Origin: Spirochaetales bacterium
GTDB lineage: Bacteria > Spirochaetota > Spirochaetia > SZUA-6 > RPPD01
Direction of reading: 5' to 3'
Length of the DNA: 64,000 nucleotides
Assembly: GCA_016930675.1 (NCBI GenBank)
Contig: JAFGGG010000021.1
Coordinates: forward strand, 38,905-102,904
Shown here: piece by piece, positions 5,704 to 8,538 of the stretch
Numbering within the stretch: position 1 is the stretch's first letter
How the letters are laid out: each line of letters starts with the position of its first letter
Notes under the pieces: generated by a model
What the model was told of the DNA's origin: nothing
The model's input: the letters and a program-made list of their open reading frames with translations, nothing else
The model's database searches: none
Position numbers and translations under genes: made by a program

Positions 5704-7119
5704 CTAAACCTCCAAACCAACGGCTTTTTCCATAGCCTTTAATTTATTCTCTGTTTCTTCGAATTCCTTTTCCGGAACCGAATCATAGACAATTCCCGCG
5801 CCGGCCTGCAGCACCAGTATATCTTTTTTCTTAAAACCGCAGCGAATGACAATACAACTGTCAAGATTGCCGTTCGGCTCCATATAGCCGACGATCCCCG
5901 CGTAAAAGCTGCGCCGCATTTTTTCTAATCCATCCAACACTTCAATCGCTTTGATCTTGGGCGCGCCGGAAACCGTTCCTGCGGGGAAGGTGGCCCGGAT
6001 GGCGTCGGCCCCTGTTTTTTCCGGTTTTAAATCACCCACTACTTCGGAAACAATGTGCATGACATGTGAATAACGTTCTATACCCATACTCTCGGTCACC
6101 TTCACGGTACCTGCTTTGCATATTCTTCCGATATCATTCCGGGCCAGATCAACAAGCATCAGATGCTCGGCCAGCTCCTTTTCATCGGAGAGCAGATCTT
6201 TTTCCAGGGACTGTTCTTCAGCCTGTGTTTTTCCCCGCTTACGGGTTCCGGCTATGGGTCTGATTAAAACCTGACCGTTTTTCACTTTAACATGGATCTC
6301 GGGTGAAGCACCGAAAAGCTGAAAACTGCCGCAGTCGATAAAAAACATATAAGGCGAAGGATTGAATGAGCGCAAGTTTCGGTAGGCATCCATGGCTGTA
6401 AGATCGGTTCGGATATATACCCTGCGGGAAAGTACACCCTGAAACAGGTTTCCCTTTATAATTTCCTCCCTTACCCGCTCAACTCCTTGCATGTAATCCT
6501 GTTTGTCCTGAGGATTGTGAATTATTTCAGATGTATATTCCTTTTTTGTCGAGGTCATAAAATTAAAATCCAAATCGTTTATTCTCTCTTCTATCTGCCT
6601 GAAAGCTTCATTAAGATCGATGGCATGTTCCTTGTAATTCAGACCCAGCAGGATTATGGTATCCGTATAGTGATCAAAAATGACAAAAATATGTCCGAAC
6701 AAAAACAATGCATCGGGAATATTCAGATCATCCGGTTTTTGCATCAATTTGATAGTATCGAAGTGGCTGCAAAACTCATACGTGATATAACCTAATCCTC
6801 CGGCGGGAAAGGGGAAGTCATGTATCACATCCTTGTGCTGGTCCGCGAAGTAAAGAAGCGCGTCCAGAATATCCCTGCCCTGGCTTTTTATCTTAAAATT
6901 CTTATTGTTTTTTCTGAGGAATATACTGTTGCTTGTCTGGTACACTCTGAATGCCTCTTTTACCAGCATGAGCGACCAGCGCTGTCTGCCTTTGGCAAAC
7001 GAAGCCGATTCCAGCAGTACCTGGGCTTCGAGTTTTGTGGCCAGAGTATAGGGAGTAAACCTCTCCCCGTTTAAGGTTTTTATGATACAGTTGGAAAATG
7101 TTTTTACTGCTGTACTCAA
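5704..7119 (-). CDS. trpE: Anthranilate synthase component I
   Basis: TrpE chorismate-binding motifs are present (LVDLARNDIGR, GAPK, GAGIV). A strong AAGGAGG RBS precedes the ATG at 7119. Confidence 0.92.
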   Translation of the reverse strand: MSTAVKTFSNCIIKTLNGERFTPYTLATKLEAQVLLESASFAKGRQRWSLMLVKEAFRVYQTSNSIFLRKNNKNFKIKSQGRDILDALLYFADQHKDVIHDFPFPAGGLGYITYEFCSHFDTIKLMQKPDDLNIPDALFLFGHIFVIFDHYTDTIILLGLNYKEHAIDLNEAFRQIEERINDLDFNFMTSTKKEYTSEIIHNPQDKQDYMQGVERVREEIIKGNLFQGVLSRRVYIRTDLTAMDAYRNLRSFNPSPYMFFIDCGSFQLFGASPEIHVKVKNGQVLIRPIAGTRKRGKTQAEEQSLEKDLLSDEKELAEHLMLVDLARNDIGRICKAGTVKVTESMGIERYSHVMHIVSEVVGDLKPEKTGADAIRATFPAGTVSGAPKIKAIEVLDGLEKMRRSFYAGIVGYMEPNGNLDSCIVIRCGFKKKDILVLQAGAGIVYDSVPEKEFEETENKLKAMEKAVGLEV

Positions 7120-7274
7120 AATTACTTCCTCCTTTACTTATGAAAAAGCCGCCACTTACGGTGGTGATTAAAAAGATGGTCAATAAGACGGTGGCTTTTT
7201 CGCCTACTCTGCACCCCTACGGGGTGCTCCTCTACATACCACCAGCAAAGCTGGCGGTATGTAGATTTTCTTAA

Positions 7275-7372
7275 TAAAAAAAGCCGCATTCCCCCTTTAA
7301 CATAAGGCTTGCGGCTTATTATAAAAAATAAGCCGTAGACCCTGGAAAACATTTACACCAGAATCCGCGGCT
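7275..7372 (-). terminator. Tandem rho-independent attenuator terminators of the trp leader (T1 7330-7372 + U-run 7321-7329; T2 7281-7317 + U7 7275-7281)
   Basis: Read on the minus strand, T1 is AAGCCGCGGATTCTGG...CCAGGGTCTACGGCTT followed by ATTTTTTAT. T2 is AAGCCGCAAGCC...GGGGGAATGCGGCTT followed by TTTTTTT. Alternative pairings are visible. The Trp-codon segment GGTGGTTCTGG pairs with CCAGAACCGC. That segment can instead pair with GCGGATTCTGG, the 5' arm of T1. GGCTTATT, the 3' arm of T1, pairs with AATAAGCC, the 5' arm of T2. Confidence 0.7.
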
Positions 7373-7396
7373 TACAACTCTTGCGTGCGGTTCTGG

Positions 7397-7465
7397 TTAG
7401 TTCCAGAACCACCACCAATTCGCGACTGCAGAACATGAAGTAATAGATCTACCTGATATGTTCAT
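7397..7465 (-). CDS. trpL: trp operon leader peptide, 22 aa: MNISGRSITSCSAVANWWWFWN (four Trp in the last six residues)
   Basis: Hand translation from the ATG at 7465 to the TAA at 7397-7399. TGG TGG TGG TTC TGG AAC TAA sits directly in front of the hairpin cascade and terminators, ~250 nt upstream of trpE. It is not in the ORF track because it is too short. Confidence 0.75.
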   Translation of the reverse strand: MNISGRSITSCSAVANWWWFWN

Positions 7466-7472
7466 GTCCAAA

Positions 7473-7501
7473 TTGTTAAAGCATTCTCCTGTTTTTGTCA
7501 A
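7473..7501 (-). promoter_or_regulatory. Putative sigma70-type promoter for the trp leader (TTGACA-N17-TAACAA)
   Basis: On the minus strand: cTTGACA aaaacaggagaatgctt TAACAAt ttggac ATG. The -10 ends about 8 nt before the leader ATG, which implies a near-leaderless leader mRNA and is consistent with the missing SD. Confidence 0.4.
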
Positions 7502-7554
7502 GAGGTTGATGGATTTTTTTAAGAGATAGCGTATAATTGAATAGAGGTGGAAAA

Positions 7555-8538
7555 ATGAAATTCAGGTTAATCGTTTTTTTCTTTTTTACAATAACTCTGA
7601 CCATTTGCCCGGAAGACAAGGTCGATAAAGCCACAGCGTTATTGAAAAAGTACTCAAGCGAATCGTATTTTATTGTTTCCACATATAACGCATTACCTGA
7701 GGAGTTTATTATTGGCAATTCCCGTATCACCATAGGCAAGGGTTCGGGCAGTACTTTCCTTACAGGAAGTGATATACGCAGCTTACTTAGTTGCGTAAGC
7801 ACTTTTGTGCATGAGATTTATCACGCTTTTTCGGGATATTACCATTGGTCCCAGCCTGATAAAATCCCTGCGGGTCATAAACCAGGAGACAGGTATTATA
7901 GTTACTATCTGGGTAACGGTGAAGTTCTGATTGTAAAGATTACAAGGGGATTTTACACGGTAGAAATTGCCCCGCACATTCCTGAAGAGCTTCGCTTTAG
8001 CGATTACGGAATGTATATAAATACAACCGCTAAGATGCTCGCTTCCCAGCAATACGGCGTCTTTGGTCTGCTTGAAGAATGGAATGCCTATTATTGGAGT
8101 ACAAAATGCGCCCTTGATCTTTTGGGATATTATGAGGATGAAGCAGGATCCGATAGTGGTCTTTGGATATCATTTTTTAACGAGGTCTATTCTACGCTTT
8201 ATATTTTCCAGGAATTCAAATATTTTATTATCAAATATCTGGAATATGCCAGAAAAGTTCATCCGGATATATATCAATCCTTAATAAATAATAATGACTT
8301 CAAGGAAGCATATCATCGCATTCATGAAAATCATATCGCCGTCGGAGCCCAGTTTGAAAAAGAAAAAAACAGAGTATTCAAAAAATTAAGAAAAAAGGGA
8401 CTGGAGATTATTGAGCTGGAGACGTATACAACCATAAATAACACGGGTTTTTATCATTTTATGAATCGGTACAGGGCTTTTGAAAAGGAACTTAAAAAGC
8501 CGCAATTTGCTGCGGTGTTTGCAGATCTGGAAAAATAG
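7555..8538 (+). CDS. Secreted putative zinc metallopeptidase-like protein (HExxH motif: VHEIYH)
   Basis: Signal peptide (MKFRLIVFFFFTITLTICPEDK). GAGGTGG RBS before the ATG at 7555. One HExxH motif. Family not recognised. Confidence 0.5.
   Translation: MKFRLIVFFFFTITLTICPEDKVDKATALLKKYSSESYFIVSTYNALPEEFIIGNSRITIGKGSGSTFLTGSDIRSLLSCVSTFVHEIYHAFSGYYHWSQPDKIPAGHKPGDRYYSYYLGNGEVLIVKITRGFYTVEIAPHIPEELRFSDYGMYINTTAKMLASQQYGVFGLLEEWNAYYWSTKCALDLLGYYEDEAGSDSGLWISFFNEVYSTLYIFQEFKYFIIKYLEYARKVHPDIYQSLINNNDFKEAYHRIHENHIAVGAQFEKEKNRVFKKLRKKGLEIIELETYTTINNTGFYHFMNRYRAFEKELKKPQFAAVFADLEK

Follow-up and report, generated by a model that had tools for sequence, protein, structure and literature searches.

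Attenuators in which a short leader peptide reports on tryptophan are familiar from enterobacterial trpL, and have also been described outside the Proteobacteria, in Corynebacterium glutamicum and Streptomyces venezuelae (cited in PMC4833913; PMC1262725). Leaderless or near-leaderless Trp leader peptides precede trpE(G) in Sinorhizobium meliloti (trpL/rnTrpL; PMC6614838) and trpEGD in Deinococcus deserti (PMC4007540). A further design is that of the his attenuator of Salmonella and Escherichia coli, in which segments pair as A:B, C:D and E:F in the terminated state and as B:C and D:E during read-through (PMC4046918). For spirochaetes, no description of a trp attenuator was found in the literature searched, and one report places Spirochaeta among the bacteria whose trp operons are split (PMC6614838). 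The locus considered here lies on a 64-kb stretch of a contig from a Spirochaetales bacterium (JAFGGG010000021.1), the whole of which is referred to as the window. Directly upstream of a complete operon, trpE-trpGD-trpCF-trpB-trpA, which runs down to position 629 on the minus strand, this DNA carries what is very probably a ribosome-mediated leader-peptide transcription attenuator, with a predicted leaderless start, a six-segment relay and two putative terminators in series (T1 and T2). Its parts, with lengths in nucleotides (nt), are as follows.

7501..7275, minus strand: whole attenuator region, comprising promoter, ATG, open reading frame (ORF) and five overlapping, mutually exclusive helices
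7501-7496, minus strand: -35 hexamer TTGACA of the trp promoter, sigma-70-type, from a promoter scan
7477-7472, minus strand: -10 hexamer AACAAT, with an 18-nt spacer to the -35 hexamer, from the same scan
7465-7463, minus strand: leader ATG, 6 nt 3' of the -10 box
7465..7397, minus strand: trpL-like leader-peptide ORF of 22 codons, MNISGRSITSCSAVANWWWFWN plus stop, from reading of the sequence
7417-7403, minus strand: regulatory codons UGG UGG UGG UUC UGG (W17-W19, F20, W21), overlapping segment 1 (7416-7403)
7399-7397, minus strand: leader stop codon TAA
7396-7387, minus strand: segment 2, CCAGAACCGC, beginning right after the stop codon and partnering segment 1 or segment 3
7371-7358, minus strand: segment 3, GCCGCGGAUUCUGG, usable as the 5' arm of T1 or, in antiterminator 2:3, as the 3' partner of segment 2
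7345-7321, minus strand: segment 4, CCAGGGUCUACGGC (3' arm of T1), with tail UUAUUUUUUAU; its portion CGGCUUAUU also pairs with segment 5
7320-7310, minus strand: segment 5, AAUAAGCCGCA, pairing with segment 4 (second antiterminator, 4:5) or serving as the 5' arm of T2
7288-7276, minus strand: segment 6, UGCGGC (3' arm of T2), with a U7 tract at 7282-7276

A preliminary description of this DNA had proposed a 22-residue leader peptide ending WWWFW, expressed from a near-leaderless promoter. That ORF and the other elements that it listed are all found at the coordinates given, with Trp codons 17-19 at 7417-7409 and Trp codon 21 at 7405-7403. Tryptophan runs of this kind are rare here: WWW occurs only three times in a six-frame translation of the 64-kb window, and a density of at least four Trp per six residues is reached in three overlapping stretches, apparently those of the leader ORF itself (the scan printed no positions). 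Because the -10 box ends 6 nt before the ATG, transcription is predicted to start at the A of the leader AUG or next to it, giving a leaderless mRNA. No GGAG, GAGG or AGGA motif that could act as a Shine-Dalgarno sequence occurs within the 15 nt preceding this ATG.

The segments that follow the Trp codons can pair in two mutually exclusive ways, and energies were calculated with each local helix folded alone. Segment 1 (GUGGUUCUGG) forms a helix of 10 base pairs (bp) with segment 2 (CCAGAACCGC) at -15.9 kcal/mol, and segment 2 pairs alternatively with GCGG-A-UUCUGG of segment 3 at -14.3 kcal/mol. Helix 3:4, or T1, joins GCCGCGGAUUCUGG to CCAGGGUCUACGGC at -19.4 kcal/mol in a 14-bp stem with a GC-rich base, a 12-nt loop and the U-rich tail UUAUUUUUUAU. 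Helix 4:5 pairs CGGCUUAUU with AAUAAGCCG (-12.0 kcal/mol), and helix 5:6, or T2, pairs AAGCCGCA with UGCGGCUU (-16.7 kcal/mol) in a two-tier stem of 8+4 bp followed by the U7 tail. The complementarities that had been pointed out earlier, between the Trp codons and the segment after the stop, between that segment and the 5' arm of T1, and between the 3' arm of T1 and the 5' arm of T2, are borne out by helices 1:2, 2:3 and 4:5, and all five helices of the alternative folds fall between -12 and -19 kcal/mol. As for the suggestion of two tandem U-tailed terminators, both hairpins have U-rich tails in the window, and several relatives have a degenerate T1 U-tract. Compared with dinucleotide shuffles, the fold of the whole leader has a z-score of -8.5, and 0 of 100 shuffles were equally good.

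Searches with TrpE place the window among uncultured Spirochaetia. The nearest named genomes are Spirochaetia metagenome-assembled genomes at 57-60% TrpE identity, and metagenome and protein databases supply relatives with identities up to 80-91%. Regions upstream of trpE were compared in 12 informative Spirochaetia loci (57-91% TrpE identity, 36-68% GC), of which L081 and L161-L166 constitute the close clade and L170, L171, L172 and L001-L003 are more distant; counts over 13 loci or sequences refer to the window plus its 12 relatives. A Trp-run leader ORF is present in all 12 relatives, with endings WWWFWN, WWWFR, WWFWK, WWVWF, WWWFWH, WWWVSG, and WWWPVS/V or WWWASG, and with the stop codon two to four codons beyond the Trp run. 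Segment 2 begins 12 nt after the Trp run in 12 of the 13 loci, and the segments recur as recognizable types: CCRGRAC for segment 2, GCCGCNGRUUCYGG for segment 3, and CCRG...GCGGC followed by a U-rich tail for segment 4. Both the leader ORF and the alternatives 1:2, 2:3 and 3:4 are kept in these 12 loci. The remainder of the peptide varies across the 13 sequences, and it is the Trp run, the frame, the stop and the 12-nt ruler that are conserved, which argues for sensing by a translating ribosome.

The promoter is similarly preserved. The -35 element TTGAC[AGT] is found in all 13 loci, and a pattern scan places the ATG 6-10 nt from the -10 box in 10 of them; in L161 and L162 (7 nt) and in L171 (second ATG), elements placed by eye fit the same geometry, so that the predicted near-leaderless arrangement extends to 13 of 13. 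A Shine-Dalgarno sequence before the leader ATG is missing in 12 of the 13 loci. Between the window and its closest relative, L081 (91% TrpE identity), identity is 55% at the 4-fold degenerate sites of trpE but 81-100% in the leader, and it reaches 100% between the Trp run and the stop; this difference indicates strong purifying selection on non-coding leader sequence.

The 5' half of the leader ORF (7463-7430, minus strand) contains a possible hairpin beginning at transcript nt 3, with GAACAU/AUGUUC in the window, and the matching halves of L081, L163 and L164 have UAUUAG...CUAAUA in common. Such a hairpin could be a pause element or a stability element, or could have an effect on leaderless initiation.

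In the 13-sequence alignment, the terminated configuration (1:2 plus 3:4) is 87.8% paired, as opposed to 32-48% with slid partners, and antiterminator 2:3 is 91.5% paired, as opposed to 24-47%. Compensatory double changes occur at four terminator-state pairs, and RNAalifold recovers T1 unguided. Position 12 of segment 3 (U/C) is the most instructive. It can pair with position 3 of segment 2 in all 13 sequences (A-U in six, G-C in four, G-U in three) and with position 3 of segment 4 in all 13 as well (U-A in nine, C-G in four). Covariation of one nucleotide with both of its alternative partners is what a switch would predict and a single static hairpin would not.

Folding with the ribosome represented as a mask over the codons that it occupies is consistent with this switch. 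With the mask at UGG 17-19, the minimum free energy (MFE) fold is 2:3 once segment 3 has been transcribed, and when segment 5 has emerged and the transcript ends before segment 6, the MFE fold combines 2:3 with 4:5 at about -34 kcal/mol. A mask at codon 21 or at the stop codon covers segment 2, and T1 forms. The stall and read-through logic that had been put forward in outline is self-consistent, and these folds, together with the alternatives conserved in 12 relatives, back it.

The mechanism may be pictured as follows. Transcription would begin at the A of the leader AUG or beside it, and a ribosome would translate the 22-codon ORF as RNA polymerase moves along the leader. With little charged tRNA-Trp available, this ribosome would stall on UGG 17-19, covering segment 1 and leaving segment 2, which lies 12 nt past the run, free to pair with segment 3, so that helix 2:3 would block T1. 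Segment 4, including the T1 U-tract, would then be free to pair with segment 5; helix 4:5 would in turn block T2, and the polymerase would continue into trpE. When Trp is plentiful, the ribosome would reach the stop codon and cover segment 2, and T1 would terminate a transcript of ~144 nt; polymerases that escape T1 would encounter T2, then free to form, and yield a transcript of ~190 nt. With no translation at all, 1:2, 3:4 and 5:6 would all form, a state of super-attenuation.

Several observations tell against this account or limit its reach. A pattern-based terminator scan flags neither T1 nor T2, which is attributed here to the scan's loop limit of 3-8 nt, given the 12-nt loop of T1 and the two-tier stem of T2. 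The covariation rests on roughly six independent lineages, helix 1:2 is weak in some relatives (-6.6 kcal/mol in L170), and the changes in 4:5 and 5:6 within the close clade are one-sided and wobble-preserving only. When the full sequence of T1 or T2 is present, the terminators win at equilibrium under any ribosome mask; full-length equilibrium mask folds cannot discriminate between the states, and it is the folds of truncated transcripts that are informative. With the terminators always favoured at equilibrium, read-through of T1 must therefore rest on a kinetic trap, that is, on the order of synthesis, as is likewise assumed for the E. coli trp attenuator. A U-tailed hairpin resembling a third terminator (T3, described below) lies between T2 and trpE, and if termination there were efficient, the simple logic would break. 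Finally, three relatives at 65-67% TrpE identity have no clear Trp run. In the ~420 nt upstream of trpE, the leader ORFs of two (L167 and L168) contain no more than one or two Trp codons, scattered along the frame, and the third (L169) has neither a leader ORF nor a terminator. These three depart from the pattern, and some branches of the wider clade have therefore remodelled or lost the attenuator.

The division of labour between T1 and T2 is the part of the scheme for which a rival carries most weight. Helix 4:5 and T2 are kept in three low- and mid-GC lineages (the window clade, L170 and L171), whose sequences differ while the pairing potential stays. Across these lineages the energies are -11 to -27 kcal/mol for 4:5 and -17 to -21 kcal/mol for 5:6, and the 4:5 duplex outscores 97-100% of shuffled controls in each locus. 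Within the close clade, the paired fraction is 98% for 4:5 and 96% for 5:6. Covariation among relatives is also seen in the upper stem of T2 (CCUU/AAGG, CCCUG/CAGGG, UCCU/AGGA). It is possible, if somewhat doubtful, that T1 is not an effective terminator at all but a middle relay hairpin, the equivalent of his C:D, leaving T2 as the sole real terminator of a six-segment attenuator. The T1 tail is interrupted in several T2-bearing relatives (UUAUUUCAUAU in L081, CUUAUUAUAUAU in L170, UUGUUCUAUAU in L171), whereas that of T2 always consists of seven to nine consecutive U; the T1 loop is large, at 12 nt; and the his attenuator works in exactly this way (PMC4046918). However, T1 of the window, with a GC-rich stem base, a helix energy of -19.4 kcal/mol and the tail UUAUUUUUUAU, still looks terminator-competent. 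In the high-GC relatives L001-L003, moreover, T1 (GCGGC-UUUUUGU, with a clean UUUUUGU tail) is the only terminator, for which reason it is taken to be the ancestral functional one. The simplest history would have T1 as ancestral and T2 as a later gain in lower-GC lineages, with T1 drifting towards a relay hairpin in some of them. In relatives with a degenerate T1 U-tract, termination may fall mainly to T2, with T1 acting as a relay hairpin in the manner of the his attenuator.

Readings that dispense with the ribosome, or with regulation altogether, fare less well. Were the sensor a TRAP-like protein, uncharged tRNA-Trp acting on a T-box, or a riboswitch, the Trp ORF would be incidental; mechanisms of this sort control trp operons in Firmicutes (PMC6614838), and the extra module upstream of trpE described below has no function assigned to it. 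An Rfam scan of window positions 6900-7700 at E <= 10, however, gave only weak chance matches to small RNAs, with neither Trp_leader (RF00513) nor T-box (RF00230) among them, and 11 relatives gave no family match, Trp_leader included, at gathering thresholds. A Bacillus-type TRAP leader has nine to eleven (G/U)AG triplets, 2-3 nt apart; in 7501-7120 there is no run of such repeats, not even of three triplets. Since the Trp run, the frame, the stop and the 12-nt ruler are kept in 13 loci whose peptides otherwise vary, which is the signature of ribosome sensing, another sensor is highly improbable. Still less credible is the view that the short frame arose by chance and that the hairpins are of the ordinary kind that terminates transcription between neighbouring genes or insulates them. 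A hairpin flanked by A and U can indeed function bidirectionally, and a co-directional gene does end upstream in L163 and L164, but in the window the upstream gene is divergent, so that no terminator is needed there. The hairpins also lie downstream of a conserved promoter, WWW is found only three times in the six frames of 64 kb, non-coding identity between the window and L081 is far above neutral, and both alternative pairings covary. A ribosome-mediated attenuator would, on the other hand, be compatible with an additional role in trans for the terminated leader RNA, the peptide or both, like that of S. meliloti rnTrpL/peTrpL. For such an addition, which appears improbable, there is the precedent of a leaderless trp attenuator RNA in S. 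meliloti (PMC6614838, PMC7298713), and some relatives show nucleotide-level conservation in the 5' half of the leader ORF. Set against it, no trans target is known for the spirochaete leader (no search for targets was made), and the operon is undivided, which removes the rationale of co-regulation that holds for S. meliloti.

Between T2 and trpE, the window has a module of ~120 nt (7264..7143) that the preliminary description did not mention, consisting of two hairpins (H3 and H4) and the T3-like region. These features and the gene that follows them are listed here.

7264-7232, minus strand: H3, a 15-bp hairpin, CUACAUACCGCCAGC-uuu-GCUGGUGGUAUGUAG
7227-7211, minus strand: H4, a 7-bp GC hairpin, GCACCCC-gua-GGGGUGC
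7195-7143, minus strand: T3-like U-tailed hairpin region with two alternative 5' arms
7195-7189 and 7166-7159, minus strand: the T3 5' arms, GCCACCG and CACCACCG, respectively
7154-7148, minus strand: T3 3' arm, UGGCGGC, followed by UUUUU at 7147-7143
5704..7132, minus strand: trpE with its Shine-Dalgarno sequence (GGAGG at 7132-7128; TTG start at 7119)

The H3-H4-T3 module is present only in the window and in L081. It is absent from the relatives at 80-88%, and in L161-L166 and all more distant relatives T2 leads directly into the Shine-Dalgarno sequence. It is constrained, since the identity between the window and L081 is 91%, as opposed to 55% at neutral sites. A G.U pair in H3 is replaced by A-U in L081, and the T3 hairpin, which is weak in the window (an A.C mismatch), is stronger in L081 and L173. 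The arms of the module reuse CCRCC/GGYGG motifs, and a change in the 5' arm of H3 is matched by one in the 3' arm of T3, from CCGCCA/UGGCGG in the window to CCACCA/UGGUGG in L081; with two sequences, this is a lead only. The module has no Rfam match and no conserved ORF.

Several readings of this stretch were considered and set aside. Against a dispersed repeat or mobile element, there is no second copy in the 64-kb window and no exact match among viral contigs. A second Trp leader ORF running through the UGGUGG of H3 has no start codon, and its frame is not kept in L081. The -10 element of a possible internal promoter with TTGACC at 7182-7177 is not shared by the window and L081. A plus-strand ORF at 7140-7274 (MKKPPLTVV...) has CTG in place of ATG in L081, followed by an early stop, as read by eye. 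A tentative and rather unlikely proposal is that these loci belong to an undescribed leaderless Spirochaetota family of Trp attenuators that has grown in stages. An ancestral T1, as in the high-GC relatives, would have been joined by 4:5 and T2, giving a two-checkpoint attenuator with a lower basal leak. In the lineage of the window alone, H3-H4-T3 would be a further stage that could mask the trpE Shine-Dalgarno sequence or relay to a third terminator through its CCRCC/GGYGG arms, for three stacked decision points in a single leader.

One further locus touches on T3. In L173, a 2.9-kb contig at 91% TrpE identity, the region upstream of trpE (1-335) contains only a perfect 8-bp T3 hairpin, GCCACCAC-cata-GUGGUGGC-UUUUU, before the trpE Shine-Dalgarno sequence. 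The sequence upstream of this hairpin is unrelated, and its opposite strand apparently encodes beta-helix (PMP-like) repeats with no start codon. This arrangement could reflect a rearrangement with its breakpoint at the edge of T3, or else a chimeric assembly, and L173 was left out of the comparison set.

The operon itself had been likened to the fused architecture of enterobacteria. The trpG-D and trpC-F fusions are real, as confirmed by Pfam, but no evidence was found for an origin in enterobacteria: in the list of Protein Data Bank (PDB) matches, TrpE structures from enteric bacteria come only 7th-8th, and trpG-D fusions also occur in about 20 of the non-spirochaete loci fetched. A 72-residue ORF at 7134..7352 on the minus strand, overlying the leader and previously judged spurious, does exist in the window; in L081 it loses its ATG and acquires a stop codon, and it can accordingly be regarded as spurious. 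On the plus strand, a 333-residue ORF with no Pfam match (7537-8538) is divergent from trp and lies between it and an acetolactate-synthase-like gene. In L163 and L164 (1-1700), an acetolactate-synthase-like gene immediately precedes the trp promoter and points the same way.

The window contains another candidate leader-peptide attenuator, at 10617-10416 on the minus strand, ahead of its acetolactate-synthase-like gene (10285-8588). The components are TTGACA (10617-10612), a short ORF, MNIFRANQNLNVLVLVVVVVDRLAPGLHRRT (10570-10475), that is rich in Val and Leu, and a hairpin GCCCCUG...CAGGGGC with a U7 tail at 10450-10416; the distance from its -10 box to the ATG is about 19 nt. It looks like an attenuator for branched-chain amino acids.

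If the trp leader functions as proposed, classical Trp attenuation extends to the Spirochaetota, and the relatives provide a natural series for the gain of attenuator stages, from one-terminator loci through two-terminator loci to the window lineage with its third, constrained module. The serial two-terminator relay would be a compact way to tighten basal expression, one that synthetic biology could adopt. As regards annotation, a spurious 72-residue gene call can be removed, and a covariance model built here (R1) represents a family absent from Rfam. Against 174 trpE loci, mostly proteobacterial, R1 matches the Spirochaetia set only, and there is no evidence in these 174 loci of a leader shared with Proteobacteria. 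The mechanism is textbook; the gain is in breadth and architecture rather than in principle.

Compared with known systems, the leader has the general attributes of a leader-peptide attenuator, namely a short ORF upstream of a trp operon with a Trp-enriched 3' end and mutually exclusive segments 1-4. Like E. coli and other enterobacterial trpL, it has tandem Trp codons near the end of the ORF, the alternatives 1:2/3:4 and 2:3, a stop codon whose position would let a ribosome terminating there cover segment 2, and an intrinsic terminator, here a predicted one, before trpE; the operon order and the trpG-D and trpC-F fusions are the same. Unlike enterobacterial trpL, which is led by a Shine-Dalgarno sequence and has two Trp codons, it is predicted to be leaderless and has four, its host is a spirochaete, and it adds a second antiterminator and terminator stage (4:5 and 5:6). 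No sequence or structure similarity to trpL (RF00513) is detectable, and the leader appears to act like that family without belonging to it.

The leaders of S. meliloti and D. deserti are similar in combining a Trp leader peptide, leaderless there and predicted to be so here, with classical alternative hairpins. They belong to different phyla, and the descriptions consulted mention a single terminator only (PMC6614838, PMC4007540); in S. meliloti the trp genes are split and trans-acting roles have been shown, whereas the spirochaete operon is undivided. In the actinobacterial trp attenuators, lineage and sequence are again different, and no tandem-terminator relay was found in the descriptions consulted. 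The six-segment topology, 1:2, 3:4 and 5:6 versus 2:3 and 4:5, is instead shared with the his attenuator, which differs in having seven His codons as the sensor upstream of his genes, a Shine-Dalgarno sequence and an unrelated sequence. Its middle hairpin is not described as a terminator in the account consulted (PMC4046918), whereas the middle hairpin of the spirochaete leader, T1, is terminator-like. The principle is classical; the RNA family is lineage-specific and previously undescribed, and joins a predicted leaderless start to a two-terminator relay.

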